DNA from: Ignicoccus pacificus DSM 13166
GTDB lineage: Archaea; Thermoproteota; Thermoprotei_A; Sulfolobales; Ignicoccaceae
DNA: 32,000 nt
Direction of reading: 5' to 3'
Assembly (NCBI GenBank): GCA_025340205.1
Contig: CP006868.1
Location: 1,290,001-1,322,000, forward strand
Made by a program: the position numbers and the translations under genes. The first letter of the stretch is position 1. The number at the start of each line of letters is the position of its first letter. A model generated the notes under the pieces. That model ran no database searches. It saw only the letters and a program-made list of their open reading frames with translations, and was not told the origin of the DNA. Below are positions 3-22,635 of the stretch, in pieces.

Positions 3-566
3 GTGCTCTCGATAGGCAAGTACTCCATCATTTCCAAGGACGTGGGTCTAGTTGACGACGTTGAGAAGGTGTTCAACTTCTCTAAGCTCAAGGGTACCCA
101 TGGAATAGGCCACGTGAGGTTCTCCACGGAAAGCGCTGTAGATGCCCTTCACGCCCACCCCTTCCAGACCTTCGACTTCCCCGACATAGCGATCGTTCAC
201 AACGGTCAGATAACTAACTATTGGAAGAGGAGGGAGCTCCTAGAGCTGGAGGGTCACGTCTTCCAGACCGATAACGACTCCGAGCTGATAATTCATTATA
301 TTGTGAACAAGCTGAGGAAGGGCTACAAGCTGGAGGAGGCGCTTCACGAAGCAGTTAAGGACTTGGACGGTCCCTTCGCCTTCCTCATCTCCATGCCTGA
401 GGGAATTGGGATGGCTAGGGATAGGCTCGGCTTGAGACCCTTGGTTACCTCCGAGTATGAGGGTGTTTTCGTGGCCGCCTCGGAAGAGGTGGCTATCAGG
501 AAGGTACTTCCCGAGAGCAAGATTACCTACTTGAGACCCGGTGAGGTGGAAGTATGGAGGCCGTGA
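3..566 (+). CDS. Class-II (Ntn) glutamine amidotransferase subunit of archaeal split glutamate synthase (GltB domain-1 like), 5' partial
   Basis: The ORF runs in from the window edge. The translation carries GATase-2 signatures (HGIGHVRFST, VHNGQITNY, FQTDNDSELI, DGPFAF, RDRLGLRPL). It overlaps the next glutamate-synthase gene by 13 nt, which suggests coupling. Confidence 0.8.
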   Translation: MLSIGKYSIISKDVGLVDDVEKVFNFSKLKGTHGIGHVRFSTESAVDALHAHPFQTFDFPDIAIVHNGQITNYWKRRELLELEGHVFQTDNDSELIIHYIVNKLRKGYKLEEALHEAVKDLDGPFAFLISMPEGIGMARDRLGLRPLVTSEYEGVFVAASEEVAIRKVLPESKITYLRPGEVEVWRP

Positions 567-2701
567 GAATAGACGCTCAGAACATGACTCCAAAGGAGCT
601 AAACAGGGAACTGAAGGAGAAAGCTAAGAGGTACAAGAAAATAATAATACTAAATCCTAACGCCAAGCACTACATAGCCGCTGGACTGGTAGCGGACGTT
701 GAAGTCGAGATCGAGGGAAGCGCCGGCTACTTCCTAGGAACCATGATCCACGGGCCTAAGATTACGCTCAAGGGCAACGCGGGCTGGTACGTAGGAGATA
801 ACATGACTATGGGAGAGATAGTGGTTAAGGGACACGCCGGAAACGGAGTCGGTCAGTACATGTACGGAGGAACTGTGGTCGTTGAAGGAGATGCCGGAGA
901 TAGGAGTGCAGCCCTAATGAAGAATGGAATAGTAATCGTTAAGGGAGACGCTGGCTTAATGACTGGCCTTTACATGATGGGAGGTAAGGTAATCGTACTC
1001 GGAGATCTCAACGAGTACGCGGGAGAGATGATAATTAACGGTAGGATCTACATAGGAGGGGCCCCCAAGAGCCTAGGCAAGAACGCCAAGCTGGAGGAGG
1101 CCAAGCCAGAGGAGGTGGAGGAGGTAAACAAGATACTGAGGAAGTACGGCCTCCCCGAGAAGGACAGCTTCTACGTGATAGTTCCCAAGAGCTTGAGGCC
1201 TGTTTACAAGCCTCCATCCGGAACTCCCGCAATGAAGAAGCTCTTACCCAAGTTCAAGACCGAGTTCACCTATGAGCTCTGCATAGGCTGCGGAGTCTGC
1301 GCACAAGTCTGCCCCGAGAAGGTAATCAAGATGGTCGGAAACAAGCCAGTGGCTGCTAGACAAGCGGATTGCATAGGCTGCTACGCTTGCGTGAACTACT
1401 GTCCGACGGATGCGGTTAAGGTCTTCAGGGTGGCGGAGAGCAAGACCAACAGAGCTAACATAGACGCCTCGATATACAACTACATAAGGCAGATGGCCTC
1501 CGTAGGTCATCCTCCCGTAGTCGGAATGGGAGCGGAGAACAAGTACTTCCCCTCTCTAGATCAGCTTACCTTCATACCCGGCCAGACCTCTAGACCGCCC
1601 ATAGACAGCTACAGAGAGCCTTGCGACACCGAGGTGATCCTAGGCCATAGGTTCGCCGAGAAGCCCTTGAAGCTCAAGGCTCCGATAATGATAGGTGCCA
1701 TGAGCTTCGGCTCCGTCAGCAAGGAGGTAAAGATAGCGTTAGCTAAGGCGGCCGGAAGGCTGGGAATAGCCGCTAACACCGGAGAGGGAGGAATGCTCCC
1801 TGAAGAGAGGAAGTACGCCTCGATACTAATAGTCCAGTATGCCTCTGGAAGGTTCGGCGTGTCCGCTTCTTACCTAAGGTCCGGAGACGCTGTAGAGATC
1901 AAGATAGGGCAAGGAGCGAAGCCGGGAATGGGAGGACTCCTATTAGGAGAGAAGGTAACCGAGGACATCTCGAAGATGAGAGGGATCCCAATAGGCACCG
2001 ACGCGATAAGCCCGGCTAGGCACTTGGACATAGTGGGCCCAGAGGACCTAAAGATGAAGATAGAGCAGTTGAGAGAGATTACCGACTGGAAGGTCCCAAT
2101 AATAGTGAAGTACGCCGCTGGAAGGGTCGCCGACGACGTCAAGATAGCGGCCAAGGCCGGAGCGGACATAATTGTAATAGACGGGAAGCCCTCCGGAACG
2201 GGAGCCACCCCTTACATAGTGACCGAGCACACCGGCTACTCCACGATGGCTGCTGTGGTAGAGGCCCACAAGGCCTTGAAGGAGATAGGCCTTAGGGACA
2301 AGGTCTCCTTGGTGGTGGGAGGAGGGATAAAGACGGGGGCGGATGCGGCGAAAGTCTTGGCCTTAGGAGCTGACGCCGTCATGATCGCCTCTGCAACTTT
2401 GGTGCCCATAGGCTGTACCTACTGCGGAACCTGCCACAACGGCAGGTGTCCCTACGGAATAGCCACCCAGAAGCCCGAGCTGAGGAGGAGGATCAACGTG
2501 GAACTTGCCGCGAAGAGGATAGAGAACTACCTCAGAGGGTTCATAGAGGAGATGTGCATGTTCGCGCAGCTGGCCGGAAAGAGCAAGCTGAGCAACTTGG
2601 AGAAGGAGGACTTAAGGGCCTTAACATTCGAGGCCTCAATGCTGACCGGAGTGAAGCTAATGGGAGTGGAGAAGCCCGCCTCCGAGCTCATGGAGAGGTA
2701 A
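554..2701 (+). CDS. gltB: Archaeal-type glutamate synthase fusion: GXGXG beta-helix domain + 2x[4Fe-4S] ferredoxin + FMN-binding glutamate synthase core
   Basis: GXGXG repeats are present (GSAGYFLG, GNAGWYVG, GHAGNGVG, GDAGDRSA, GDAGLMTG). There are two CxxCxxCxxxCP motifs (CIGCGVCAQVCP, CIGCYACVNYCP). The FMN core motifs follow (GAMSFGS, NTGEGG, IKIGQGAKPGMGG, IVIDGKPSGTGA). Confidence 0.85.
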   Translation: MEAVRIDAQNMTPKELNRELKEKAKRYKKIIILNPNAKHYIAAGLVADVEVEIEGSAGYFLGTMIHGPKITLKGNAGWYVGDNMTMGEIVVKGHAGNGVGQYMYGGTVVVEGDAGDRSAALMKNGIVIVKGDAGLMTGLYMMGGKVIVLGDLNEYAGEMIINGRIYIGGAPKSLGKNAKLEEAKPEEVEEVNKILRKYGLPEKDSFYVIVPKSLRPVYKPPSGTPAMKKLLPKFKTEFTYELCIGCGVCAQVCPEKVIKMVGNKPVAARQADCIGCYACVNYCPTDAVKVFRVAESKTNRANIDASIYNYIRQMASVGHPPVVGMGAENKYFPSLDQLTFIPGQTSRPPIDSYREPCDTEVILGHRFAEKPLKLKAPIMIGAMSFGSVSKEVKIALAKAAGRLGIAANTGEGGMLPEERKYASILIVQYASGRFGVSASYLRSGDAVEIKIGQGAKPGMGGLLLGEKVTEDISKMRGIPIGTDAISPARHLDIVGPEDLKMKIEQLREITDWKVPIIVKYAAGRVADDVKIAAKAGADIIVIDGKPSGTGATPYIVTEHTGYSTMAAVVEAHKALKEIGLRDKVSLVVGGGIKTGADAAKVLALGADAVMIASATLVPIGCTYCGTCHNGRCPYGIATQKPELRRRINVELAAKRIENYLRGFIEEMCMFAQLAGKSKLSNLEKEDLRALTFEASMLTGVKLMGVEKPASELMER

Positions 2702-4665: not shown

Positions 4666-4692
4666 ATAGTCACTCTTCCCCTGCACGGAAGT

Positions 4693-4770
4693 GCCGCGGT
4701 AGTATAGCCAGGCCTAGTATGCGGGCCTGTCGAGCCCGTGACCCGGGTTCAAATCCCGGCCGCGGCGCCA
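4693..4770 (+). tRNA. tRNA-Asp (anticodon GTC), CCA encoded
   Basis: I folded the cloverleaf by hand. Acceptor stem is GCCGCGG/CCGCGGC and D stem is GTAT/GTAT (two G-U pairs). Anticodon stem is CGGGC/GCCCG with loop CTGTCGA. T arm is CCGGG-TTCAAAT-CCCGG, the discriminator is G, and CCA follows. Confidence 0.95.
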
Positions 4771-4810
4771 CAAACCCCCTCACCACCCCTCCCTTCGTTC
4801 GAAAGACTCT

Positions 4811-5311
4811 TTATTGACCGAGCAACTTAGCTCGGATCTCTTCTGTGGAAGTCTCTCTAACGAAGATCACGTTAAGCCTTAACCTCCTAGCTTGATTTGC
4901 CATGCCCTTGTCGTCGGTTACGAGTAGAGAGTCCGTAAGAAGCGCCAATGCGAGGAAGTAAGTATCGAAACCGGACGGAGCAGTCGTTAATGCTACTTCC
5001 AGGGCCTTATCGTACACTACGTCCTCGTCAATAACTATGAAAGTATTGTTTAGACTCTCAACGACTTTTAGTACGTGCTCTCTCGGCATGCCGCTCCGCT
5101 TCAGTACCGATGCAACTTCTATTATGCCAGCTTTTGGGAAGAACACCTTATAGTTCATCTTCTCCAGCAAGCTCAGTATTACACGTATCTTCTGGCGAGT
5201 CTCTATCTCCCTCTTATAGATGTCTCTCTCCAAATACCTTGGTGGAGCCAGAACGCTTTTGGCTACGACGCTTGTGTCGAGTACAACTCTACCCATACAG
5301 CTTCTTGTCAC
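4811..5311 (-). CDS. vapC: PIN-domain ribonuclease toxin (VapC-like)
   Basis: The N-terminus VVLDTSVVAKSVL and the C-terminal LVTDDKGMA are typical PIN acidic motifs. It overlaps the upstream small antitoxin ORF. The start is probably the internal ATG at 5296 (MGRVVLDTS). Confidence 0.8.
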   Translation of the reverse strand: MTRSCMGRVVLDTSVVAKSVLAPPRYLERDIYKREIETRQKIRVILSLLEKMNYKVFFPKAGIIEVASVLKRSGMPREHVLKVVESLNNTFIVIDEDVVYDKALEVALTTAPSGFDTYFLALALLTDSLLVTDDKGMANQARRLRLNVIFVRETSTEEIRAKLLGQ

Positions 5312-5510
5312 GTTTACGAACCTCCTCTAAAACTTCGTCGACGTTCCGTTTGGCTTCGAAACTTGTAGACAGAGCTAGCTCATAAAAACTCTTATCACGT
5401 ACCACAACGACCAGCTCTTCCCCCTCCTTAAGGTCTACAGGCTCAAGAGGTTTTAGCACGCCGTTTTCATACTTAACACGTATAGCCTTGGACAACTCTA
5501 TCCCCGTCAA
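5289..5510 (-). CDS. DUF104/UPF0165-like antitoxin partner of the PIN toxin
   Basis: This 73-aa ORF carries the hallmark IRVKYENGVLKPLEPVDLKEGEELVVVV. It lies immediately upstream of the PIN gene and overlaps it. Confidence 0.7.
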   Translation of the reverse strand: MTGIELSKAIRVKYENGVLKPLEPVDLKEGEELVVVVRDKSFYELALSTSFEAKRNVDEVLEEVRKRDKKLYG

Positions 5511-5639
5511 TATACGTTGCCGACAGAGTCACCTAAGCTTTTTCCGATGCAATATTCATAATTAGACTCAAGAATTAGAGTGAACGTCACATTCCGTGCT
5601 TCTTTGTGTATCTGTATAAGGCTGGTTTTATAGCACGGA

Positions 5640-5684
5640 CCTGTCGAGCCCGTGACCCGGGTTCAAATCCCGGCCGCGGCGCCA
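5640..5684 (+). repeat. Exact 45-nt direct repeat of the 3' part of tRNA-Asp (att-like integration scar)
   Basis: A base-by-base comparison shows 4726-4770 is identical to 5640-5684 (cctgtcgagcccgtgacccgggttcaaatcccggccgcggcgcca). No 5' half of a tRNA precedes it. Confidence 0.9.
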
Positions 5685-5878
5685 TTCTCACAAATTACAA
5701 CTACCCATGCTGCCTCGGCAAGTAACTTCCGACCCCATCCCACTGTTTCCAGACCCTGGAACCTCGATTGAGAGGGAGATCAACGAACATACTTAGTATT
5801 TTCTAGAAAGATATTGAGGTTCGAATATGGTCCATCTTACTATGTTATATGGCCTCTTTACATACAAGACTTGAGGCT

Positions 5879-6378
5879 TCATGGCTCACCGGCCCTTCTC
5901 AGAATTTCATTCTCTACATCTTTTGAGATTCTGAAACCAGCGTCCTTGAGCTTTTCAATATCGTTCTTCACACTACTTATTAATTTAATCCGATTCTCTT
6001 TGCCTTAAGTAGTATACCCACTGTGCCGGCCACACGGAGACCTAGCTTCTTGGCATGTTGTCGCCCTTCTCTTTCATCAATTAACAATAGGTCAGCTCCA
6101 GTCTCGAGTGCAAGTATGATGGCTTCCGCTTCACCTTCATCGAGAAATGTCATTAAGAGAGTCTTCATTGATTTGTTCTTTATTGGAAGTACTTTTATCC
6201 ATGGCGCATTCTTCACCTCGAGTGCGCCCGGTTGTCCCATGCCTTCTTCGACTACCTCTTTATACACCGCACAAGGGATGATTACCTCATTGAACAGTTC
6301 TTGCAAAAGGTAGAGTCTGCCTATTCTCGATAGGTGAATTAGCGGTGAGGAATTAGATACTACCTTAAGTCTCTGCAA
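5879..6378 (-). pseudogene. DUF3368-type PIN-domain toxin, frameshifted near its 3' end
   Basis: ORF 5980-6378 ends ...GILLKAKRIGLN*. The expected family C-terminus (IKLISSVKNDIEKLKDAGFRISKDVENEILRRAGEP*) continues in another frame down to the stop at 5879-5881. Confidence 0.6.
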
Positions 6379-6628
6379 ACTTTAAATCATCCTCCAGTTC
6401 TTCGTTAGTATAGTGTCTTTCGACTTTCCTCTTACTAAGCTCTTCCAAGAACTCCCACTTGCTCAAGCCGGCCAATCTGCGAGCTTGTCCCAAGCTCAGT
6501 ACTCCCCGAGCATAGAGGGCTATAGCCAGCTCGAGTCGTGCAACGCGTTCGAATTCGTTCTCCGGGATCTTGGCTCCTTGGACTACGTCTTTAGGAACGC
6601 GGATGACGATGGAGACCTCTTTGACCAA
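6365..6628 (-). CDS. UPF0175-family antitoxin (partner of DUF3368 PIN proteins)
   Basis: This 87-aa ORF carries LELAIALYARGVLSLGQARRLAGLSKWEFLEELSKRKV. It overlaps the start of the DUF3368 gene by 14 nt. Confidence 0.7.
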   Translation of the reverse strand: MVKEVSIVIRVPKDVVQGAKIPENEFERVARLELAIALYARGVLSLGQARRLAGLSKWEFLEELSKRKVERHYTNEELEDDLKFAET

Positions 6629-6666
6629 CGCTTAAGCCCGTCGAGGGAACGCATAAGGGATATTCA

Positions 6667-6711
6667 AGTATGCGGGCTTGTCAAGTGAGTTCAAATCCGG
6701 CTGCAGCGCCA
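6667..6711 (+). repeat. Decayed third copy of the tRNA-Asp 3' portion
   Basis: The segment agtatgcgggc is identical to tRNA positions 4716-4726. It continues as ttgtcaagtga-gttcaaatccgg-ctgcagcgcca, with transitions and a short deletion relative to the tRNA. Confidence 0.7.
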
Positions 6712-7255
6712 CCTCTATAACCTTGGATTCAGGTTCTGTAATTCTACGGAATCTTAATTGGATTATCCGAACTCAAGAAGCCTCAGAGCTTCCCCTTTCG
6801 GACACCTCGTTGGTCGTACAGAGTATATCAGCGAAGTGCAACTAAAGTTAGTTAGAGATCTTGATGCTTGGGCCCCGAGCGAGGCTAATCCGTTCGGTCC
6901 TCGAACGCTTTTACCGCCAATGAACTCTCGAAGGTCCTAGGTAAAAGCAGGAGTACGATCTACGCTGAGGGAGAAGTAATCCCGAGCGAGGAGGTCGTAG
7001 TGAAGGTTCTAACATTGCTCCCTGTCGACGCATCCCTCGGTTCAGTAGGGAAGGAGGTTCTCAATGCTTATGGGTTGCTTGATCGAGGCGACAAATCAAA
7101 GCTTGCCCCTTTGCTAGCGATCTTGACCGTAGCTCTCTGAATCATTAATACGTCAAGTAAGCTCGCTATCTTAAGTGAAACTCCATTTTTCCCACGAGTT
7201 GTGACTAGAACTCCTATAGTACAGGATTTGATAAAGTAGAAGCACCGTTCTTAGG

Positions 7256-7666
7256 TTATATTTCAAGAGGGTTTACCACTTCTACGTTTAATAATTTGGA
7301 TATCAAGTTAGCTTTCTTGCTTATCTCTTTATCTAGTGTTATGAACCTATCACAATTGAGTAAGTATGAGGATAGCAGATGTAAAGTATCTAGCGTCCTT
7401 AACTTGATTAAGGAGGAGAAACGTTCCATAAGTGAGATTAGTTCAGCAAGGCTTACGTCTACTATTCTCGCCCTAACTATACTTAGTGACGCCTTTGCCA
7501 ATACCTTCGGATCGTTAGCTACTCTAGAGAAGAATGAAATTAGCTCGGCGTAAACCAGAGGGGTCACCGTTCCCTTGCCGATCTTAAAGTTCCTTACCTT
7601 TTCATGATTCACATCATCTTCCACTACGTAAGAAATTATGAAAGAGGTATCTAGAAAATCGGTCAC
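7256..7666 (-). CDS. vapC: PIN-domain toxin (VapC-like)
   Basis: The N-terminus FLDTSFIISYVVEDD and the C-terminal FITLDKEI are typical PIN motifs. It overlaps the upstream RHH ORF by 4 nt. Confidence 0.8.
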   Translation of the reverse strand: MTDFLDTSFIISYVVEDDVNHEKVRNFKIGKGTVTPLVYAELISFFSRVANDPKVLAKASLSIVRARIVDVSLAELISLMERFSSLIKLRTLDTLHLLSSYLLNCDRFITLDKEISKKANLISKLLNVEVVNPLEI

Positions 7667-7896
7667 TCCCTTTCACCTAGGAACTCTGAAACCCAGTCCT
7701 TCTTCTTGCCCAAGCTTATCTTACCTTCTTTTACGATTCTCTCTATCTTTTCATTTTCGTTGTCTAAGTTCTTCAAGCCTAACTCTATTAACTTTATTAT
7801 CACTTCGTTCCTAGACTTCCCATATCCAGATTCTAAGAGTTCGTTTATCTTTTCCAAGATCTCTTTCTTCACCCTTAAAGGCAGTACTACGCTCAA
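7663..7896 (-). CDS. vapB: Ribbon-helix-helix (CopG-like) antitoxin
   Basis: The 77-aa translation begins VVLPLRVKKEILEKINELLESGYGKSRNEVIIKLIELGL, a beta-strand followed by two helices. It lies directly upstream of the PIN gene. Confidence 0.7.
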   Translation of the reverse strand: MSVVLPLRVKKEILEKINELLESGYGKSRNEVIIKLIELGLKNLDNENEKIERIVKEGKISLGKKKDWVSEFLGERE

Positions 7897-8232
7897 ATGT
7901 ATACACCAAAGTATACTCTACTGAGAAACATAAAAGTATACGGAAAATGCTCTTAGCTCTTGGATACTTACCAGTTCTTCCTATTTGTGCTTTTGTGTTA
8001 CGTGTGGTGAGCTCTTTATTCTTGTTCAATCATCACCAAAATGTAGATTAATGAAAATGGCCTAATCACGAAAATTTGTGATCTTGAGCGAATGGTTTAC
8101 ACTTAGCGTAGAACTGACGTATACTCTATATAGATCTAACATCTTACGTACAATCTGTGGCGATAACCCTCCCTATTCCATCTCTTATGTACAATTAGGG
8201 TTTATTGAGAATTTATTGTTAACTTTTACTTA

Positions 8233-8631
8233 TCAGTTTTCTAAGTCTTTCTCAATTGCTTTAACTAACTCCTTCACTCTCTTTAATGCATCCTTTACAT
8301 GTTCCTCTTTGCACCATCCTTCGTAAAAGCAGACGTGCATTGAAGAAGCGCTCATCCAAGCATCATGAACCCACTCGCCCCATCTTTTCCTCAGCTCCAA
8401 TTCGTACTCCCACAACTGTCCATGTGAAGCTAACCTCTTCCCTTCCTTTACCAATGCGTGTGCTTTGATGGCTAAAGCAGCTGCTCCCCAGACCTTTTCA
8501 GCGGCTTGTCTGTAATCGCCTTTCCGAAGCTCCTCCTCAGCTTGTTTAAGGAATTGCTTTGCTTGTTCTAAGTAACTCAATTGCTTCAAGCTCAAAAGAG
8601 GTTCCCAGTATGACCCGCGGTAAAGGTTCAT
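8233..8631 (-). CDS. PaREP1-family protein (HEPN-like helical protein of unknown function)
   Basis: The translation matches the PaREP1 pattern as I recall it: LRKGDYRQAAEKVWGAAALAIKAHA, ...LASHGQLWEY..., ...SASSMHVCFYEGW. Confidence 0.75.
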   Translation of the reverse strand: MNLYRGSYWEPLLSLKQLSYLEQAKQFLKQAEEELRKGDYRQAAEKVWGAAALAIKAHALVKEGKRLASHGQLWEYELELRKRWGEWVHDAWMSASSMHVCFYEGWCKEEHVKDALKRVKELVKAIEKDLEN

Positions 8632-8678: not shown

Positions 8679-11423
8679 GTGAGGGTCCTAGCTCTCCTGT
8701 TGCTTCTAGCGATTACAAGCAAGGTCATAGCAATTTCCTTAACGCAACTATGGACGTTCAAAACTAACGGTGTAGTTGAAGCGCTAGCCTTCTCCGATGA
8801 CGGTCGTTTAGGAGCTGCCTCTTGGAATGGTTGTGCCGACATCTTGGATCAAAATGGAAATTTGGTGAGCGGATATTGTAGAGATTATGGCATGAACGAC
8901 GTCTCCTTCTGCTGCAACAAATTCGGCTTTGTTAAATTCTATCATTGGGATCTTGATGGAAACGTTTACATCTACGACCTCTCAACTGGAACTTGGAAGA
9001 AGGTGTACGTTGGAGATCCTTATGATTCAGCAATCACAATGCTCAAGGACGGCTTTCTGGCTGGTGGCGACAATCTCGCCTACTTCGACTTTCAAGGGAA
9101 CAAGAGGTGGGACGTGAGTATGAAGTACATTACAAACGGTCCAGCTGTTTACAACGGGTACGTTTACGTTCCAAGGTGGGATTGGCCTTCTGAAGGTAAA
9201 GGCGCTCTTACTATCCTCAAGCTCTCAGATGGAAGCGAGGTAAGGACCATAAAATTCAATGAAAGGGTTTTTGATACTCAAGTCTGTGGAAATTACTTAG
9301 CTCTTGGAACAGCTCATCACGTTTACCTTTATGACATTAGCAACCCAGCGAATCCAAGGCTTCTGTGGTACAGCAATTATTTAGCAAGTAGCTGTAGCGG
9401 AGGAGATTGTTGGGGGGCCTACAACGTCGCCTTCAGTCCGGATTGTAGGTACTTAGTGAGCACTGATAATGATGATTGGAAAATATACTTATTCGATACG
9501 CAAACTGGAAGGCTAGTGCTGGAGAGGAAGTTTAAGAATGATGTTAATGCTGTTGCTTGGTGGAGGGATAGAATAGCTGTTGGATTAGCTGGAGGTGGAT
9601 TAAGAAATGGTAAGATTTACATGTTCAAGGTTGAGGGATACGAGCCATATTTCGGCCTATCGCGAGATCAATGGAATTCCTTAACAGCTCAACAAAAAGA
9701 AGCTATAAGCAAGTGCTATTCGATTATCCACAACTCAAAGCTCTGTTATTCCTTCGTTAAAGCATTGGGAGGAAGAGTCAGTGTATCAAATTCTTTAAGC
9801 ACACAAGAGCTGTCTAAAACCTTAATGTGCTATGCTATCTTCAAAGACGCTATAGGATGTTTGAACTCAAAGTTGATCGTTAAACCTACCCTCTCACTCA
9901 CAATGCTCCCCAATCAACCTCTAACCCAACCGTTCACCCAAACGATCTTCCTCTCTTACCCAAGTAGCTCCACCGCGTTAACTACTGTAACGGTAACACA
10001 AAGCCAACCAGTAACCATAACCTTAAGCAGAATAACCTACGTCACAACGATTGAAATTCCGACTACAATTACCACGCTCGAAATCAATTACGGTCCTTCA
10101 AAGTTCCCAGCCCTCTCCAATGCTACCATCACCGTTACCGTTTCCAACCCAGCCGACTTACCAGCTGAGATAACGTTAGGAAGCTCGACGATAACGGTAG
10201 CTCCCCACTCTTCAGCACGAACTTCGACCATCACCTACCTCACCTCCACCGGAGTGATAAGGAAGACCCTAACCCTCCAGGCTTACGGAATTACCTATAC
10301 AAAGGGAATAACGGTAACTGCTACGGAGCCGAGAGTCAAAGCCTTCCCGATGCCACTTCTAAAGAGCGCCACGATCACCTATCCCTTAACACTGGTGAAT
10401 GAGGATAACATAATAGCCACCCTCTCAGCTCTTCCCAACCCGTTAGGGATATCTTCCATTCCATTAACCTCCAAAACGGTAACCCTAACGGCGACCTACT
10501 CCTTGTCATCAACTGTTCTAAACCTCAAAGCGTTCAAGTACGGAATTACTTTGACTATCCCAGTAACGTTTACCTCCACCTCTCTCCCAGTGACGATAAA
10601 GCTGCTCAACTCCAAGGTTAAACCTTTAATTCCCCAAACGTTGACGTTCTTGGTCATAGCCAAAGAGCCGGTTACCTTCTTAGGAAGAAGTGTTGAGGGA
10701 AGCTCCACGTTAACGACAGTAGTAACTCCCGAGTCAGAAGAGTTCAGGGAGACGTTAACGCTTACTTGGGCTAAAGTGCCATTAACTTTCACCTTGAGCT
10801 TAATAAAGCCCTATACCATATTGAAGAAAGAGCTAGTCGGAGCTATAGGTGTTCCGACCCTCCTGATCCCGCTGAAAGCGGATAGGGAGTTAACCGTGAG
10901 CGTTCCTGGAGGAACCCAAACGGTAGCTCAAGGACTGCAATTGGTGACCTTATCAATCGCTAACCTCAGGCCCGGAATCAAGGAATTCCCAATGAAAGTT
11001 TGTTTATCGAACTACTGTTTTTACGAAACCGTGAGAGTAACTCTGACTATACCAAAGGTAATAGTTAGAGTTCCACAGACTGTAACGGTTAACGTGAATC
11101 AATCCAAGGAAGTTTACATTACGATCATGAATCCCAACACGTTCCCGTTAATAGTTACTCCTAAGGCCGACGGAGTGTTCCTCAGAGTAGCAGAGGTTCC
11201 GGTAAGCCTTCCGCCTAAAGGAGTTGTGACAGTAAAGGCAACAGCCACAATGAACGTTTACGGAATAGCTAACGCAACGATCACCATACTGATAAACGGT
11301 ATTAAAGTAGTTACAAATGTGATTAGAGTAATAGCGGCTTTGAACTTCCTACCGACGAGCACCAAGGAAGTGATTCCTTTAGTGTTGCTAGCATTTGCTA
11401 TAGCGATAAGAAAATTTACCTAA
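8679..11423 (+). CDS. Large surface protein A: signal peptide, Cys-rich beta-propeller-like module, small Cys-containing helical linker, Thr/Val-rich Ig-like repeat stalk, C-terminal TM anchor
   Basis: The 914-aa ORF starts MRVLALLLLLAITSKVIA. The propeller-like module spans 8739-9655. The repetitive beta-rich T/S/V/L/P region begins around 9880. The C-terminus is VIPLVLLAFAIAIRKFT. Confidence 0.8.
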   Translation: MRVLALLLLLAITSKVIAISLTQLWTFKTNGVVEALAFSDDGRLGAASWNGCADILDQNGNLVSGYCRDYGMNDVSFCCNKFGFVKFYHWDLDGNVYIYDLSTGTWKKVYVGDPYDSAITMLKDGFLAGGDNLAYFDFQGNKRWDVSMKYITNGPAVYNGYVYVPRWDWPSEGKGALTILKLSDGSEVRTIKFNERVFDTQVCGNYLALGTAHHVYLYDISNPANPRLLWYSNYLASSCSGGDCWGAYNVAFSPDCRYLVSTDNDDWKIYLFDTQTGRLVLERKFKNDVNAVAWWRDRIAVGLAGGGLRNGKIYMFKVEGYEPYFGLSRDQWNSLTAQQKEAISKCYSIIHNSKLCYSFVKALGGRVSVSNSLSTQELSKTLMCYAIFKDAIGCLNSKLIVKPTLSLTMLPNQPLTQPFTQTIFLSYPSSSTALTTVTVTQSQPVTITLSRITYVTTIEIPTTITTLEINYGPSKFPALSNATITVTVSNPADLPAEITLGSSTITVAPHSSARTSTITYLTSTGVIRKTLTLQAYGITYTKGITVTATEPRVKAFPMPLLKSATITYPLTLVNEDNIIATLSALPNPLGISSIPLTSKTVTLTATYSLSSTVLNLKAFKYGITLTIPVTFTSTSLPVTIKLLNSKVKPLIPQTLTFLVIAKEPVTFLGRSVEGSSTLTTVVTPESEEFRETLTLTWAKVPLTFTLSLIKPYTILKKELVGAIGVPTLLIPLKADRELTVSVPGGTQTVAQGLQLVTLSIANLRPGIKEFPMKVCLSNYCFYETVRVTLTIPKVIVRVPQTVTVNVNQSKEVYITIMNPNTFPLIVTPKADGVFLRVAEVPVSLPPKGVVTVKATATMNVYGIANATITILINGIKVVTNVIRVIAALNFLPTSTKEVIPLVLLAFAIAIRKFT

Positions 11424-11852: not shown

Positions 11853-12407
11853 TTGTTCCTCCTCGAAGAACTTCAAAGGAAAGCTAATGAGGAAAGGAAA
11901 TATCCTAAAGATCAAGAGTTCTTGGAAAGGAAAGCAATTGACGTAGTTTATGAAATGATTAAAGCTAAGGAATTGCTTGAAAAAGGAGATACGAGAAACG
12001 CAGCTGGAAAAGCATTCCAAGCCTGGAAGGACTTGCTCTCATGCTTAATTTATTTGAACTTGGATGAGTTAGCAAAGAACGAAAAGGAGAGGAAGTGGCT
12101 CTTAAAGAAAGGAATAATAGTTCCAACTACAAAGATGCAACAGTTGGCCTTGGAGCTTGAGAAGAGAGGCTATAACATGTTGAGCTTTATCACCGACAAG
12201 GCACTAAAGCTCCATAACTACCAATACAACGGTCCCGACCCAGACAATTATTACGGAGGGATAGTAAGCGAGGACGTAGCTAAGGAATATGTTAAACTAA
12301 TGTTAAGCGTTACTAAGGAGTACTTGGAGAGATACATACTTCCTAACATTAAGGGGGAGACTTTGAAAATGATCAGAGAGGGCTTGAAGCTATTGGAGTC
12401 CGCCTAA
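11853..12407 (+). CDS. PaREP1-like helical protein, paralog of 22105-22635
   Basis: KGDTRNAAGKAFQAWKDLLSCLIYL and ALKLHNYQYNGPDP follow the same pattern as PaREP1 (GD..A..K.W.A, then LH..Y.G). It aligns along its whole length with the ORF at 22105-22635. Confidence 0.6.
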   Translation: MFLLEELQRKANEERKYPKDQEFLERKAIDVVYEMIKAKELLEKGDTRNAAGKAFQAWKDLLSCLIYLNLDELAKNEKERKWLLKKGIIVPTTKMQQLALELEKRGYNMLSFITDKALKLHNYQYNGPDPDNYYGGIVSEDVAKEYVKLMLSVTKEYLERYILPNIKGETLKMIREGLKLLESA

Positions 12408-12432: not shown

Positions 12433-14763
12433 CTACTGTACGGCAAGCGGTATGTTCACGCTCCACACACTCCCATCGATGAACGTTAACCTTAAGGTCA
12501 CTTGTGGCATGACGTTCACATTGACATTATCACAATAGACAATCAAGCTCCACAAGTCCTTCTTTATGCCAACTATATCATATAGATCAGCTTGATACTT
12601 ATGAGTTCCATCGTACGCCACGCTAACACTCCTTCCAGCCCATCTATCAAAGGTAATTATAGCGTTCGTCTTACGGAAGTTGGTCTCTACCTTAGATCTT
12701 GAAACGTAGACGAGCTCTAGTACGCCGTTGACTACTGTGGCAAAGGGTTTATAAGGAGAATAGAAGAGTGTGTTACCGATCTTACCTACCAAGATCCCTT
12801 TCTTAAGCATGGCGAAAGAGGCAGACGAATAGACGGCAGAATTCCCCATATCGCTCGTAGTGAATAATATTATTCCAGGAGCTATGGAATCCTTATCATC
12901 CACTTCTCTCTTACTCAATCCATGGTAACCGCTCACCACTATTCCAGAGATCTTGTTGACTGAGATAGGTTTTCCGGTCTTCAAGTCCTCAACCGTTCTG
13001 GATTGAGGTACTGATGTGCCAATGACGTTGGAACCGACGCTGGCGACCAAATACGAGTAGGTACAAATGGTTCTTCTCCCGAACCTGACTTCAACGGAAT
13101 CTAGAGGGATCTTCGGAGGATTCATGAACGATAGCACAAATACTACCCCTCTATCCCAGTAAGGTCCTCCAGTAGCGTTCATCGAGGGTGCCAAGAACGT
13201 GGCCTGGATCAAAGTTAAGATGTTTGTATTTGTAACTTTAATTGATGGTAATAGTTTGCTTAAGGTAACCGTATAAAAGCGCACCCACGGTTGGAAGATG
13301 GCGCTCAGCATTTGAGATATAACCTTTATCACGTCAGTGTAAACCTTCTCCAAGGTGGTTACCAAGCTCGAAGTTATTTCATAAAAGCTCAAGGCTGGCA
13401 TGAAGCTCCCTCCTAAGTACTCAGTATACGTGAGGGTCACGGTCTTCGTTATTTTAGCTACAGTTCCAGAAATTATTGGAGGAGACACCTTCATTACTGT
13501 TAACGTCTTAACGATTATGCTAGGCTTCAAGAAGGTTACGAGGCCGTGAGGAGGACTCTCTGTGGTTATCGTTTTCACTAAGCATATTGTATTCGTAACA
13601 GCCGCTTCTGGACAAATCACGTATCTTGTCGAAGCAGCTGCGCTGTTCAGTAAGATATATTTGTCGGTCGTGAACGTTATAGTAGTAACTTTCGTCTTTG
13701 TTACCTCTATTCCAAATGCCTCTGCCTTGACGACCCTTGATAAATAAATCGTTACTGTATTATTCCTTTGGCTCAAAGTACCGAAGAGGGAGGAGCTCAT
13801 AGTAACCGGAACTTCCTTGTTTGTCAACACGCTCAGCGTACCGTTAGCCCAAGCGGTGAAAGTTCCGATTCCAGTAGTTAGTGAGATGCTTTGGCTGACA
13901 GATGCCTTAGTCACGAACGTCACCAAATTTAAACTAGCCTTCACGTTAGGAACGCTGAACTCCTTCGCACTGAGCTGTTTACCATTAACTATGACAGCTA
14001 TGTTAGAACCTAATTTAATAGTACCACTTTTTAAATGTTCGTACTTCAGTTCTTCGCCCCTAACGTCTAAAACTATTACGATACCTTTACTTGCTATTGC
14101 AAAGACTGAACAATTAGCATTGAACATAACATCACTCACGCCTTTTATATAAGTGTACCAAGCTGGAGTATGTTTACTGAACTTGAAGTAGTATAAGCTC
14201 AACTTATCGTCAGAGGGGGAGTAACTTACTAAATAGTCCGAGCAGACGTCGAAGACTGTTCCATCGTACCTACCTAGCACCTTGCCGCTCTTCAAATTAA
14301 TCAAGTAAGCCTTGTTAGACGTTATCGCTAGTACCTCGTCCCCTCTTACCTTTACCTCCTTGATCCCGGGAAGATCCAGCGACCAGAGCTCCTCGGTTCC
14401 GTTGAATGCCCTTATCCAATCCTCGCCAATTACTATTATTACATTCTTAAAGGCAAATACATCCTTACCATTTATCGGGATCACGATACCTTTGGGTAAT
14501 ACTACCAATCGATCGCTATACAACAAGTACTCCTTCCCGCAACAGTAGTCCGCAGAAACCACGTTGCACTTCACGTCCTTTATATGTAACTCCTTATCCA
14601 TGAAGTATGCACAATTGCCAGCGACAGCTACTATTCCGTCGCTCTTTACCTTAACGATACCAACTTGATTTGGAAGGACCACGTTGAAGTACGCTAGCAG
14701 CACAGAAGTTAACAGCAGCGCTATGAGGGACCATCTCAAGAGCTCTTCCCTATTTGTTAGCAA
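12433..14763 (-). CDS. Large secreted/anchored protein B: N-terminal signal-anchor, divergent copy of the Cys-rich propeller-like module, Thr-rich beta region, unknown C-terminal beta-rich domain
   Basis: The 776-aa ORF lies 45 nt downstream of ORF C on the same strand. The likely start is the TTG at 14739 (MRWSLIALLLTSVLLAYF). Module motifs present are GNCAYFMD, SADYCCGKEYL, VCSDYLVS and FNANCSVFAIAS. Confidence 0.75.
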   Translation of the reverse strand: MLTNREELLRWSLIALLLTSVLLAYFNVVLPNQVGIVKVKSDGIVAVAGNCAYFMDKELHIKDVKCNVVSADYCCGKEYLLYSDRLVVLPKGIVIPINGKDVFAFKNVIIVIGEDWIRAFNGTEELWSLDLPGIKEVKVRGDEVLAITSNKAYLINLKSGKVLGRYDGTVFDVCSDYLVSYSPSDDKLSLYYFKFSKHTPAWYTYIKGVSDVMFNANCSVFAIASKGIVIVLDVRGEELKYEHLKSGTIKLGSNIAVIVNGKQLSAKEFSVPNVKASLNLVTFVTKASVSQSISLTTGIGTFTAWANGTLSVLTNKEVPVTMSSSLFGTLSQRNNTVTIYLSRVVKAEAFGIEVTKTKVTTITFTTDKYILLNSAAASTRYVICPEAAVTNTICLVKTITTESPPHGLVTFLKPSIIVKTLTVMKVSPPIISGTVAKITKTVTLTYTEYLGGSFMPALSFYEITSSLVTTLEKVYTDVIKVISQMLSAIFQPWVRFYTVTLSKLLPSIKVTNTNILTLIQATFLAPSMNATGGPYWDRGVVFVLSFMNPPKIPLDSVEVRFGRRTICTYSYLVASVGSNVIGTSVPQSRTVEDLKTGKPISVNKISGIVVSGYHGLSKREVDDKDSIAPGIILFTTSDMGNSAVYSSASFAMLKKGILVGKIGNTLFYSPYKPFATVVNGVLELVYVSRSKVETNFRKTNAIITFDRWAGRSVSVAYDGTHKYQADLYDIVGIKKDLWSLIVYCDNVNVNVMPQVTLRLTFIDGSVWSVNIPLAVQ

Positions 14764-14808: not shown

Positions 14809-17800
14809 TTAGAGTCTCTCCATCATCCTAGCTATAGCGTAAGCCAACATGATCAATCCCGCTATTCCCTCGAAGCCGCTGCCTCCCGGTGGAACCGCTA
14901 TTATCTTCATCAATACGGTTGTCAACGTTCCTAAGCTGTTTGTTATGAGTACGGTTGCGGTGACGTAGCCGTAGTACTTCAGAGTGCCTGTGACCGGTAT
15001 CGCTACCTTAGCGAGAGGCTCTATGGTGATTACGCTCGTCGGGAAGCTTAAGCGCTTATCGCCTATTAAAGTAACTACCATCCTTACGGGGAACGGGTTT
15101 GAAAGCACTAGCAATGTCGTGTTACTCCCTATACCCCTTATGGTCAAAGTAGGAGTCCTTACAACTATAGGCCTTGGTATGCCTACGTAATAGCAAGTGC
15201 CCGTTAGGGAGGTACAACCGCTCGAGAAGCACGCGCTGAAGTACAAGTCGTTGCATCCAATCGTCGATGGAATGAACACCAGTGAAGTAGTTAGCGTGGC
15301 AGAAGGACTCAGAGATACCTCGTACCAGTCGTTGTAAGCCCCGCTCACGGACAAGGTGAAGTAGTACGAGGTGTTTGCTAGATTACTTACGGTAATCGGT
15401 ATCGTCAGAGGCACTCCTATACGTCCTTCCGCATATTCGGGAACTATCGTTAGGGGCTCTAAGGGGCTCACGTAGCTTTGTGTGGTGAACAAAGTGTACG
15501 TTGAGCTAACAACGACTAGCGTGACATAAGTGGGTCTTGTGAAGGTCCTCTCGAACGTCACAGTGGTCCTATTTGAAAGCAAGGTTATCTCTCTAGAGGA
15601 TCCGTCCAGTAAGAGCAGTATTGTAGCTGGGGACCTCGCCGACTTGGATAGTACAACGTATAAGCTAGCTGGCAAGTAGCTGTAGACGTCGTTAGCGTAG
15701 AACCTTTCGACTGAGATAGGGACCTTTGGAACCACCATTATCACTCCTAAGAGCCTTTGTGTTCCAACGCCCAACTCGAAGGTGTTGACGGTAGCGCTCG
15801 TTCCGGCCTTGCCGACGAGCGTTATGACGTTTGTGCCCGGAACCAAGAGCGCCCTCCCGACGGCGTTGGAGTTCACGTAGCCGGTAGCGAGGTATGTCCA
15901 GCTGTCCTTGTTTATAGCTGTGAACGTCACCTTGTAGCCCTTGCCTATCGGAACAGTAACGGTCGTGATTCTAGGTATAAGAGACACGTCAGGAGTTATC
16001 GAGAAGATTGATAGCTGCGTCCTCCAGTTGCCTATCGCAAGCGTTACTGGGGTCGTGATAACGGGTAAGAGTATAGTAGTCGTTCCGTAGAGCGTCGTGC
16101 TTACTAACTCAGTAGTTCCCTCGAGGACGTTCAAGGGTACGATCACGTCCTTCAGAGCGTTAATTACCTTCACTGGAACTACTATAACTGACCCCTCAAG
16201 ATACGGAAGCGTTGAGGGGGACACAGAATAGGGCATAATAAAGTAGTAGTTTAACGTGGCGGTAGCTAAGACCTTTCCTAAGTACGTGACTGACACGTAA
16301 GCAGTCCCGTTGAACTCGGTTAGCGGAGTGATGGTCACTGGGTACAGAGTAATCGCTTTAGGGGGAATTGGTAAGGTTTCAGAACCTAAGGTTACGGTTA
16401 AGGTGTTCGAATACGGGTTCAGCAGCTCTACAGCTATCTCTGAGCTGATTCCTAGTGGAACGGTAATCGTCTGTGGAACTATCTTTATGCCGATAAATGG
16501 CGTAATAACTAACGCCTTAATCTTGTGCTCGGCTATCTTTTTACCATTCAAATAAACGCTTATCGGTATCGAGCTTACGTCCCAACCATTCAACAACACG
16601 TTTATCGTGGTTGTGGTGTATCTAGGAGGAACGGTGATGTAAATCGTTTGAGACTTCATCAATAGGGTAGCTGTGTAGGGCTCGGTGAAGTTGTTAAGCA
16701 GCGTTACGGTCGCCTTCGTCGGAAGGCCCGGAACGTAAGCGACTTTTCCTTCAATGCTAATGGGGACGTAGAACCAGTACCTTACCGGTATTACAGCGAG
16801 GGTAACGTTTCCGGACCTTAGTGTTAAGGTAAACGTCTTGGCGCTGAGCGATGGAGAAATATACAACATTAGATGATTGGTCCTCGGGACTAGTATCATC
16901 TTACCCAAGGTGAAGTTGTTAACCATTCCAGTAGCAACGAAGCTTATTGGTAGCGTATTGGTTACGGTTACAGTATGGGTGGCCGTCAGAGGGTAAGCCC
17001 AGCTACCCCTTTCGGTAATAGTAACCGGTTTAAGAGTTTCGGGTACGACGCTAATTGTAGTTATGGTGCTAGTGTTATCGTATAGTAATTGAAGAGGTAT
17101 GTTGGTTAAGTTCCTAGCTACCATCACTAATGGAATAACCGTCGTGTGGGTGGGAAGCGTTACCTTAGCGGAGAGAGGGGCAACGCTTACATTTATTGGA
17201 ACCAAAGTAAGGGTTACCACCTTGCCTAAGTTGTTAGCAACAGTAAGGTTAGCTATCTCTGTTGCGCGTGGAACAATTGTTATAACCTTGCTAACTTCGA
17301 TAGGTTTTATGACCCTTATCGTATATGGATAAGAGGTTAGGGTCTTGTTATTTACCAACAGGTAGACGGTGTGCGTGACGGTTCCTATCCTACTCAGCGT
17401 GATGACGTTGCTTAGTGTGGTATTTCTACTTAGAGTTAAGGTGGTGGACCTTAATCCCTTCACCGTTAAGGTCACTGGCACAGTTTCCAAGTTAATTATC
17501 ATAGTTTTTATAGTCTTTGTGCTGTTTATTATTCCTTTAATTGAAGTGGGCGTGACTATGAGTACTGCGTTAGGTAACACCTTCCTGAGGGTTACCGTTC
17601 TTTCAGCTAACGTGAAGGCATCGGAAAGGACTTTCATCGTTAACGAGCTTAGCGGATACGTTAAGGTGAACGTGGAGATAGATGAGATGGTATTGGTTAT
17701 TCCGTCAACAATCAACGTTAGAGGGCTTGTGGGAGCGGGTGTGAGGGTGACAGTGTAAGTGTTAGCCATTCCGTACTTGAAGGTCGTCGGTGATACGGCT

Positions 17801-18120
17801 ATTGAGTAGGGGTACGTGTAGACTACCGTTATCTTTTTGGTTAAGTTTAAACCTATTTCGTTAGTAAACGTGAGAGTTTCGTAGGCAGTAGTTGTAGATT
17901 GATAGGGATTCAAGGTATATGTTATTGTAGTAGTGTTTAAAAGCACCATCATCGATATCGGGATACCTCCTCTCATTACTGTTAAGGGTATAGGAGTTTT
18001 CTCTTCATTGGATAAGGTCAGTGGCAAGGTAGTGGTGCCTACTCCCATTGTGGTGATGGTTGGCGATACTTTTAGTGCCATCGCCAAGGGAAGTAGGATC
18101 AGGAGCAGCGTCCATCTCAC
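14809..18120 (-). CDS. Giant Thr/Val-rich all-beta surface glycoprotein candidate C with signal peptide and C-terminal TM anchor (S-layer/sheath-like)
   Basis: The 1103-aa ORF starts MRWTLLLILLPLAMALKV. Low-complexity-like Ig/CARDB-style segments recur (e.g. LTIPITVSNLANTSYYFTLSVSG). More than a dozen N-x-S/T sequons are visible. The C-terminus is GIAGLIMLAYAIARMMERL. Confidence 0.75.
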   Translation of the reverse strand: MRWTLLLILLPLAMALKVSPTITTMGVGTTTLPLTLSNEEKTPIPLTVMRGGIPISMMVLLNTTTITYTLNPYQSTTTAYETLTFTNEIGLNLTKKITVVYTYPYSIAVSPTTFKYGMANTYTVTLTPAPTSPLTLIVDGITNTISSISTFTLTYPLSSLTMKVLSDAFTLAERTVTLRKVLPNAVLIVTPTSIKGIINSTKTIKTMIINLETVPVTLTVKGLRSTTLTLSRNTTLSNVITLSRIGTVTHTVYLLVNNKTLTSYPYTIRVIKPIEVSKVITIVPRATEIANLTVANNLGKVVTLTLVPINVSVAPLSAKVTLPTHTTVIPLVMVARNLTNIPLQLLYDNTSTITTISVVPETLKPVTITERGSWAYPLTATHTVTVTNTLPISFVATGMVNNFTLGKMILVPRTNHLMLYISPSLSAKTFTLTLRSGNVTLAVIPVRYWFYVPISIEGKVAYVPGLPTKATVTLLNNFTEPYTATLLMKSQTIYITVPPRYTTTTINVLLNGWDVSSIPISVYLNGKKIAEHKIKALVITPFIGIKIVPQTITVPLGISSEIAVELLNPYSNTLTVTLGSETLPIPPKAITLYPVTITPLTEFNGTAYVSVTYLGKVLATATLNYYFIMPYSVSPSTLPYLEGSVIVVPVKVINALKDVIVPLNVLEGTTELVSTTLYGTTTILLPVITTPVTLAIGNWRTQLSIFSITPDVSLIPRITTVTVPIGKGYKVTFTAINKDSWTYLATGYVNSNAVGRALLVPGTNVITLVGKAGTSATVNTFELGVGTQRLLGVIMVVPKVPISVERFYANDVYSYLPASLYVVLSKSARSPATILLLLDGSSREITLLSNRTTVTFERTFTRPTYVTLVVVSSTYTLFTTQSYVSPLEPLTIVPEYAEGRIGVPLTIPITVSNLANTSYYFTLSVSGAYNDWYEVSLSPSATLTTSLVFIPSTIGCNDLYFSACFSSGCTSLTGTCYYVGIPRPIVVRTPTLTIRGIGSNTTLLVLSNPFPVRMVVTLIGDKRLSFPTSVITIEPLAKVAIPVTGTLKYYGYVTATVLITNSLGTLTTVLMKIIAVPPGGSGFEGIAGLIMLAYAIARMMERL

Positions 18121-22104: not shown

Positions 22105-22635
22105 TTAGACACTCTCCAACACCTTCCTCAAATCCTCATCCAAATAGTTCCCAAAGTGCTTATCCATGATCTCTTTCCACTTCCTCAGTAACCTCTTCAA
22201 GCTGTCCAACGCTTCCTCCTTATCCGCTGGTCCTCCCCATAATCCTTCGGGATCTGGACCGTTGTACTGGTAGGTATGCAAATAGAGTGCCTTGTCAGTC
22301 CAAGCGCTTATGTCCTCTAACCCAATATCTTCCAACAAGGAGCTTAGGACCCTAAGCTTGGAACTAGGAGCATATATTCCCTTCTTTAAGAACCACTCTT
22401 TCTGCCTTTCATCCTTCAATAATTGCAATATTTCCTCCTTCTTCAAGTAAAGTAAGGCAGAAATTAGATCCTTCCAAGATTGGAAGGCTTTCCCACAAGC
22501 GTTCCTGATGAGACCCTCCTCAGCTAGCTTCTTCGCTAAGAAGGCCTCATAGATGGAATCTTCTATTTTCTTTTTGATGAAGTTGTCCTTTGCTGGCTCC
22601 TCAAGCTTTTCCTTTGTCTTCTCCAAAAGGGACAT
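22105..22635 (-). CDS. PaREP1-like helical protein, paralog of 11853-12407
   Basis: EEGLIRNACGKAFQSWKDLISALLYL, FLKKGIYAPSSK and ALYLHTYQYNGPDPEGLWGG are colinear with the ORF at 11853-12407. Confidence 0.6.
   Translation of the reverse strand: MSLLEKTKEKLEEPAKDNFIKKKIEDSIYEAFLAKKLAEEGLIRNACGKAFQSWKDLISALLYLKKEEILQLLKDERQKEWFLKKGIYAPSSKLRVLSSLLEDIGLEDISAWTDKALYLHTYQYNGPDPEGLWGGPADKEEALDSLKRLLRKWKEIMDKHFGNYLDEDLRKVLESV

Follow-up and report, generated by a model that had tools for sequence, protein, structure and literature searches.

What carries a bare two-gene toxin-antitoxin (TA) operon from place to place is the question raised by a stretch of Ignicoccus pacificus DSM 13166 (contig CP006868.1, positions 1,290,001 to 1,322,000; these 32,000 nucleotides (nt) are referred to as the window), in which a tRNA-Asp gene is followed by two copies of its own 3' part, each with a TA pair in front of it. 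TA operons are among the most horizontally mobile prokaryotic genes (PMC2701414), and in Sulfolobus their mobility has been attributed to insertion sequence (IS) elements (PMC3718332). For a bare pair of genes the means of transfer mostly goes without explanation, or nearby IS elements are held responsible. At this locus and in its relatives the TA pair is packaged with its own attachment site (att) in a unit of about 1 kb, which is precisely inserted, polymorphic, stacked and present at several tRNA genes. Our reading, to which we give a probability of roughly 60%, is that the window holds two recombinase-less TA cassettes with tRNA-derived att sites, inserted one after the other and integrated in trans by an archaeal tyrosine integrase. 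The evidence suggests that the TA operon and its att are the moving unit, and not the residue of larger elements, because units with perfect repeats contain TA genes only, end points are shared, sizes are narrow and no debris is present.

The repeats and their boundaries can be read directly from the window (Table 1). The initial annotation had reported that the last 45 nt of the tRNA-Asp gene recur exactly at 5640-5684 and that a longer but decayed copy is present at 6667-6711, and both alignment and scanning bore this out. A repeat finder and a Smith-Waterman scan returned 5640-5684 as identical to 4726-4770, and the 25-nt att core occurs twice in the window against zero occurrences expected from shuffles. 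Immediately 5' of this second copy the identity falls from 45/45 within the repeat to about 40-55% outside it. Copy 3 keeps an identical first 11 nt, beyond which it has four transitions (C>T, G>A, C>T, G>A) and lacks 10 nt, spread over three gaps. It is taken as a real att, which would have eroded from a 55-nt form, because its Smith-Waterman score of 41 lies above shuffled sequences (maximum 26 in 2000 shuffles, with a window background of about 22) and because its equivalent in a close relative, the metagenome contig L135, reproduces tRNA positions 24-78 perfectly over 55-57 nt. The 3' part of the tRNA-Asp gene itself (from position 24, 30 or 34 to position 78) corresponds to a putative attachment site, attB/attL.

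Table 1. Coordinates of the tRNA gene, the two TA units and neighbouring features in the window (aa, amino acids; GC, guanine plus cytosine; ORF, open reading frame).
Feature	Coordinates	Strand	Basis or remark
tRNA-Asp(GTC), intact	4693..4770	+	ARAGORN; Rfam tRNA model, 59.7 bits
Unit 1, 914-nt cassette including its att copy	4771..5684		interval itself 4771-5635
VapC-like PIN toxin gene (unit 1)	4811..5311	-	PF01850, E=3.7e-8; 166 aa from GTG, 161 aa from ATG
AF2212-like (DUF104) antitoxin gene (unit 1)	5289..5510	-	PF01954, E=8.1e-16
att copy 2, right junction of unit 1	5636..5684	+	tRNA positions 30-78, 48/49 nt
Unit 2, 1027-nt cassette	5685..6711		interval 5685-6666
DUF3368 (PIN-like) toxin pseudogene (unit 2)	5879..6378	-	frameshifted; PF11848 after repair
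UPF0175 antitoxin gene, 87 aa (unit 2)	6365..6628	-	PF03683, E=1.7e-26; 87-aa counterpart called in L135
att copy 3, right junction of unit 2	6667..6711	+	decayed 55-nt copy, tRNA positions 24-78
Right flank without intact gene	6712..7255		homologous to right flank of L135, sharing GGTTCTGTAATTCT (window 6732 onward)
HTH-like reading frame, 83 aa, without start codon	6889..7137	+	HTH_3, E=0.0018, below cut-off
Third TA-like pair, past copy 3	7256..7896	-	PIN PF01850, E=3e-11, plus 77-aa upstream gene; GC ~38%
PaREP1/HEPN-family genes, three	8233-8631; 11853-12407; 22105-22635	-; +; -	Pfam
Very large ORFs, four (Pfam matches for two)	8679-11423; 12433-14763; 14809-18120; 18264-21128		Pfam

Such repeats might also be decayed duplicates of the tRNA-Asp gene, that is, pseudo-tRNAs unrelated to mobile DNA. 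The Rfam tRNA model matches partially at copy 2 (5620-5673, 24.5 bits, E=0.14) and in doing so extends 5' of the repeat into a D-arm-like hairpin at 5620-5635, as a former tRNA gene might allow. This hairpin is weak, however, and comes without a 5' acceptor strand, and neither the abrupt drop after 45/45 identical positions nor the unrelated cargos of the two intervals is what such duplicates would give. The L135 counterpart of copy 3 is perfect for exactly 55-57 nt, and the empty-site polymorphism described below tracks the repeat boundaries, so that L135 effectively refutes the pseudo-tRNA explanation, which we regard as extremely improbable.

A TATAAG-like motif, G(T/C)ATAAGG or TTATAAGT, is located 1-16 nt 5' of the att copies at the right ends of units (window 5612-5619 and 6651-6658; L135; and Aeropyrum camini, L144, by 4656 and 3219). 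An integrase might bind it as an arm site; alternatively, it may act as a TATA box from which the tRNA 3'-half copy is transcribed.

That each interval holds a single TA pair and nothing else, as had been claimed from the first reading, was confirmed by inspection of the ORFs and by Pfam searches. Unit 1 is laid out as a 40-nt left end, the PIN/AF2212 operon, a 125-nt right end and the att copy. The antitoxin gene comes first and its stop overlaps the PIN start; the PIN protein retains all columns that are invariant across 11 homologues (including D7, E30, E60, E91, D111, D128 and D129), and the toxin gene appears to be intact. With its acidic PIN residues and a small overlapping antitoxin gene in front, the pair would be classed as a VapBC-type type II TA system. 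Homologues of this PIN protein in metagenome-assembled genomes (MAGs) are 75-88% identical to it, and it is about 30 residues longer than usual, the TA proteins being otherwise unremarkable.

Unit 2 consists of a 194-nt left end, the DUF3368/UPF0175 operon, a 38-nt right end and the decayed att copy, and UPF0175 and DUF3368 are its only genes. A 5-bp tandem duplication (TTAAT, 5980-5989) frameshifts DUF3368 and removes 30 of the 46 domain residues: the remaining 132-aa ORF (5980-6378) reaches 15.7 bits against PF11848, which is below the cut-off, and the repaired reading of 166 aa, joined to the frame at 5879-5998, reaches 49.8 bits (E=3.2e-13). An intact homologue (P0044) encoded on L135 has 164 aa and is 98% identical to the repaired protein. 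As the gene is intact in L135, which is 96% identical, its inactivation in the window by the TTAAT duplication was probably recent. The initial annotation had described the TA cassettes as clean addictive relics; only TA pairs are indeed present, but the unit 2 toxin is inactivated, which weakens that picture, and no deletion debris accompanies them. Both units have an att at each end and no recombination or replication genes in between, the arrangement expected of non-autonomous cassettes, and their GC content of 46% (46.0% for unit 1) compares with 53.6% in the upstream core.

Comparison with relatives showed that unit 1 is a discrete insertion. L135, a contig of 1675 nt found by searching with the repaired DUF3368 protein, and L070 (metagenome sources ERZ27262685 and Ga0256843) both carry a tRNA identical to the window tRNA-Asp. 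In window orientation L135 reads left flank, tRNA-Asp, unit 2 directly, a perfect 55-57-nt att and right flank, and it is 96% identical to the window over 1087 columns. Its unit 2 (1033 nt, with perfect att and with DUF3368 and UPF0175 intact) is 96.2% identical to that of the window over 1035 columns. Aligning the two loci revealed that they differ exactly by unit 1 and one att copy: these 914 nt, TA pair included, are absent from L135 with break points exactly at the repeat, and the tRNA of L135 abuts the left end of unit 2. Unit 1 is thus a presence/absence difference between close relatives, observed directly. Collapse of the repeat in L135 is unlikely because the contig was assembled with k=141, longer than the repeat. 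Direct repeats identical to the tRNA together with an intact tRNA at the junction, as found in the window, are what tRNA-targeting elements leave. Two earlier proposals, that at least two successive integrations occurred at this tRNA and that the outer, more decayed copy marks the older one, are borne out by L135, in which unit 2 stands alone against the tRNA; in the window unit 1 is inserted between the two, exactly at the att boundaries.

Outside unit 2 the similarity between the window and L135 declines sharply. To the right of copy 3 the flanks share about 65% identity (estimated from the alignment), with indels, and on the left identity ends 10 nt before the tRNA. With 96% identity inside it and flanks that are far more diverged, unit 2 is much younger than its surroundings, as would be expected if it were a separate mobile unit that the two genomes came to share recently.

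In archaea, elements that integrate at tRNA genes are served by SSV-type 'suicidal' or pNOB8-type integrases, and the term 'gene capture' is said to come from She et al. The initial annotation had explained the locus by full-size elements of these types, which integrated here and then suffered internal deletions that spared the TA modules since their loss would be lethal. With the PF16795 integrases of the metagenome loci L038 (335 aa) and L014 (453 aa) as tblastn queries (E<=10), and by six-frame reading of 4700-7300, no integrase remnant, Int(N) and Int(C) fragments included, was found in the window or within 4771-7255, the part singled out for such a check, and none of the window ORFs tested had a Pfam match to a recombinase. 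Frames that cross the att sites stop within 13-35 codons; the reading APRPGFEPGS across these sites resembles what we take to be the att-encoded stretch of the SSV1 integrase. The suggestion that viruses or plasmids might carry the same pairs found no counterpart either, as relatives of the unit 1 PIN were absent from IMG/VR, INPHARED and PLSDB, collections that are poor in crenarchaeal elements; IMG/VR also contained no match to the 31-nt att core and no relative of the L038 integrase.

Deletion of larger elements does have parallels beside tRNA-Asp in other hot-spring metagenome contigs, where integrase genes occur in all stages of decay. The 31-nt tRNA-Asp core was located in 120 metagenome loci. 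At L038 a gene for a PF16795 'archaeal phage integrase' (E=3e-21) is separated by 110 nt from an att-only copy (46 nt, tRNA-Asp positions 33-78), so that an integrase-bearing element with the same tRNA-Asp att geometry as the window is directly seen, and the window's geometry matches a real integrase system; at L014 a PF16795 integrase gene lies beside a full tRNA-Asp. In other loci the gene next to tRNA-Asp is frameshifted (L082), truncated (L021/L023) or reduced to 26-52 aa (L063/L116 and L026/L083), and L108/L121 carry an integrase-less insert of about 6 kb with an att copy. Loss of the integrase after integration has been reported for archaeal elements (PMC8371274), and a larger element could have left behind the 194-nt spacer of unit 2 and the HTH-like remnant past copy 3.

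In L108 (139-178) and L121 (10214-10253) the tRNA-Asp has an intron, and the att copy about 6 kb downstream is intron-less (positions 33-72, 100%); the att of that element therefore derives from an uninterrupted tRNA-Asp. L012 has two full tRNA-Asp genes, at 98-174 (-) and 1994-2070 (+), inverted and 1.8 kb apart.

TA-only units bounded by repeats of a tRNA 3' part recur elsewhere, and this recurrence is again a direct observation. They were found in Aeropyrum camini and in several Desulfurococcales and Ignisphaera MAGs, at tRNA-Arg(CCG), tRNA-Arg(TCG) and tRNA-Thr, are about 0.9-1.2 kb long and stand singly or in arrays of up to four, with att copies that begin at tRNA positions 29-34 in most loci. 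One AF2212/PIN unit of 933 nt is present at tRNA-Arg(CCG) in L128, and four (994, 931, 984 and 1039 nt) at tRNA-Arg(TCG) in L129/L130, each followed by a copy of tRNA positions 30/32-79. The chromosome of A. camini SY1 (AP012489) has four units at tRNA-Arg(CCG), three of which are AF2212/PIN, the second ending in a perfect att (45/45, positions 34-78). L141-143 have a single 1157-nt unit next to a tRNA-Thr(TGT) gene with an intron, and in L136 a UPF0175/DUF3368 unit lies beside an AF2212/PIN unit with decayed tRNA-Arg-like copies between them.

Several of these units are homologous from end to end. The L128 unit is 80% identical to the second unit of L129 over positions 12-933, the non-coding ends and att included, and 76% identical to the second A. 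camini unit over 884 nt, so that whole units are shared between different tRNA genes and array positions. Independent deletion relics are disfavoured by this, because such relics would not share end points. Unit 1 of the window is 85% identical to the L128 unit over 753 nt, which is the operon only; the arms differ, as fits the different att of unit 1. Moreover, the units with perfect, hence recent, att repeats (unit 1 of the window at 45/45, unit 2 of L135 and the second A. camini unit) are already TA-only. The claim that larger SSV- or pNOB8-type elements lost all but their TA genes is not supported by these data: neither interval contains a fragment of an integrase or other pseudogene, recent units hold nothing but TA genes, a PIN/AF2212 unit of about 0.9-1.2 kb recurs at three other tRNA genes, units at different tRNAs and in different genomes have common ends and vary little in size (0.91-1.16 kb), and unit 1 is precisely present or absent between relatives that are 96% identical. 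We consider the deletion explanation unlikely.

The att copy of L128 (3328-3380) agrees with tRNA-Arg(CCG) in no more than its final 32 nt, and on its 5' side it resembles a different anticodon arm (loop CTGGTAA, anticodon GGT). Such a composition is a hint that integration can proceed via shared T-arm and acceptor sequence, i.e. that the target can switch.

The gain and loss of units might instead be put down to homologous processes, namely unequal crossing-over between att repeats together with import between strains, with no dedicated mobilisation of single cassettes. The four units of L129 are paralogous at 70-80%, direct repeats of 45-55 nt could support a deletion that explains the state of L135, and the 96% identity of unit 2 between genomes with far more diverged flanks fits recent lateral exchange. 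On the other hand, neighbouring units in the window and in L136 carry unrelated TA families, and one cassette at four tRNA species with matching att copies requires de novo insertion each time; in most loci the repeat has a sharp edge at tRNA positions 30-34, as is typical of the core site of a recombinase. Homologous processes alone are in our view a distinctly improbable explanation, and recombination between the repeats may rather add to the gain, loss and duplication of units that an integrase would insert.

The mechanism proposed for the trans-integrated cassettes is as follows. The 3' segment of tRNA-Asp that begins at the anticodon stem and ends with CCA would serve as the attachment site of an archaeal tyrosine integrase, and each cassette would consist of a type II TA operon and a tRNA-derived att with short arms. 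The UPF0175/DUF3368 cassette would have been integrated first, with a 55-nt att, and the AF2212/PIN cassette would then have entered the tRNA-proximal site with a 45-49-nt att, pushing the older cassette outward; at each insertion, recombination by the tyrosine integrase between the cassette-borne attP and the tRNA 3' part would regenerate an intact tRNA and leave a direct repeat downstream. Since the cassettes encode no integrase, it must come in trans, presumably from another element, either resident in the same cell or infecting it, whose integrase recognises this segment of the tRNA and would probably mediate excision as well. For unit 1 the predicted junction of the circle is ...TTTTATAGCACGGA-[45-nt att]-CAAACCCCCTCACC... 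We infer the circular intermediate, the supply of integrase in trans and the addictive function of the TA pair; the pair would be the entire cargo, presumably stabilising its own retention. After fixation the distal att and the toxin would be free to decay, and unit 2 of the window, with its eroded att and inactivated toxin, may illustrate this fate.

More tentatively, and at slightly less than even odds, such minimal recombinase-less TA cassettes could form a class in hyperthermophilic Thermoproteota (Desulfurococcales, Aeropyrum and Ignisphaera), arranged in integron-like arrays on functional tRNA genes, mobilised in trans by archaeal integrases and able to switch tRNA targets. Switching might proceed through the T-arm and acceptor sequence common to hyperthermophile tRNAs, and an integrase of the Thermococcales has been reported to show relaxed recognition of its target (PMC7253208). 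If this class is real, it would explain in concrete terms the 'exceptional mobility' for which TA modules have long been noted.

A number of observations weigh against the trans-integrated cassettes proposed here. No integrase was found in the 32-kb window, the part of the genome in which it was looked for, and no TA cassette was recovered as a circle or in attP form. The series of decayed integrases shows that decay of larger elements does occur at tRNA-Asp, and the 70-80% paralogy of the L129 units means that tandem duplication could have contributed to that array. The unit ends differ in length (194 and 38 nt in unit 2 against 40 and 125 nt in unit 1), and the orientation of the TA genes relative to the tRNA is not fixed, being on the same strand in L141. 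The first 15 nt or so past the window tRNA resemble the trailers in L070 and, more weakly, in L052, which a simple integration model does not predict. A limited search of the open-access literature gave no earlier account of cassettes of about 1 kb that are anchored at a tRNA and contain TA genes only.

When set beside known systems, the units are like archaeal tRNA elements in that the tRNA 3' part is targeted, the tRNA is regenerated, a 45-55-nt repeat is left downstream and insertions are successive or in tandem at one tRNA, as has been described in archaea (PMC8371274, PMC7253208); in related metagenomes, moreover, the PF16795 integrase works at tRNA-Asp with the same geometry of att. They are unlike them in having no whole or partitioned integrase and no replication or virion genes, only a single TA operon in 0.9-1.0 kb. 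PMC6563490 gives 2.6 kb for its smallest cryptic integrated element in archaea, one that has an integrase; provided that they are mobilised in trans, the units would lie far below this size. The TA proteins agree with the VapBC (PIN plus AF2212/DUF104) and DUF3368/UPF0175 families in domain content, antitoxin-first order and overlapping genes, and the novelty is in the packaging of the operon, not in these proteins.

In bacteria, cis-mobilizable elements (CIMEs) are non-autonomous and att-flanked and accrete in tandem with integrative and conjugative or integrative and mobilizable elements. The units resemble them in being att-flanked, without recombination or transfer genes, in tandem at a tRNA or att and presumably dependent on the integrase of a related element; they differ in archaeal host and integrase family, in being far smaller, in having a TA pair as sole content and in that no autonomous partner was identified in the genome. 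Integron gene cassettes, including the TA cassettes of bacterial chromosomal superintegrons, provide a second comparison. Here the likeness is in arrays of small single-operon cassettes that end in a recombination site, a fixed anchor and TA genes as recurrent cargo, but there is no IntI, attI or attC hairpin: the role of recombination site falls to a tRNA 3' part and that of anchor to a functional tRNA gene. The window accordingly does not qualify as an integron array, having no integrase and tRNA 3' parts in place of attC, and its cassettes, unlike those of integrons, appear to carry their own promoter region. Should they be mobilised as proposed, archaea would have in them a natural equivalent of integron cassettes and CIMEs, and TA genes a direct and testable route of spread.

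From 10 nt before tRNA-Asp (4683-4692) and further upstream, the sequence of the window is unrelated to that of L135/L070. The window has a gene for a 241-aa membrane protein and an NADH-oxidase-like gene there, and L135/L070 have a flavodiiron/metallo-beta-lactamase-like gene. As these flanks are unrelated while the tRNA and unit 2 are 96-100% identical, a rearrangement break point at tRNA-Asp is suggested. L070 (1286 nt) is identical to L135 in its left flank and tRNA (100% over 574 nt) and differs in downstream content: 22 nt past its tRNA lies a decayed DUF3368 gene of another lineage (71% nt identity), truncated and fused to a PaREP1 gene that is homologous to window 8432-8586. A third type of cassette has therefore used tRNA-Asp. 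The sequences that follow the att copies did not yield the ancestral chromosomal flank, as likenesses between them were 9-15 nt, too short and mutually contradictory.

Beyond the units, the conserved genes upstream (glutamate-synthase-like and NADH-oxidase-like) have the core GC content given above, and past the two intervals GC is 41-44% up to about 14.8 kb. The HTH-like frame in the right flank had no homologue among 5.8 billion proteins; it was considered by eye as a possible N-terminus of the L014 integrase, which BLASTP did not confirm (E=0.55). In the third TA-like pair the 77-aa gene upstream of PIN has no Pfam match and is taken as ribbon-helix-helix (RHH)-like. Neither the Rfam model nor the Smith-Waterman scan detected a fourth att copy beyond this pair (7897-8232), so that no att is detectable on its far side, and no att copies of tRNA-Val were found.

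The three PaREP1/HEPN genes are interleaved with the four large ORFs, of 776-1103 aa, in a low-GC stretch. Beta-propeller/WD40-like Pfam matches were obtained for 8679-11423 and 18264-21128 and none for the other two, and the large ORFs are read as candidate secreted proteins from their hydrophobic N-termini. L001, which has the closest match to the NADH-oxidase-like protein (79% aa identity), was tried as the orthologous locus and rejected, since no tRNA-Asp is nearby and synteny is broken. The C-terminal 225 or so residues of the 776-aa protein (12433-14763, -) are 36% identical to a 315-aa protein of L001 (11329-12276), which adjoins the NADH-oxidase orthologue in an orientation and position differing from those in the window and which, from its N-terminal sequence, is read as probably pilin-like. 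A further PIN pair in the window (28904-29543, +), made up of a PIN gene (PF01850, E=6e-8) preceded by a gene of 90 aa, is conserved in L001 at 67% nt identity in a different context and looks like a chromosomally fixed TA, unlike the cassettes.

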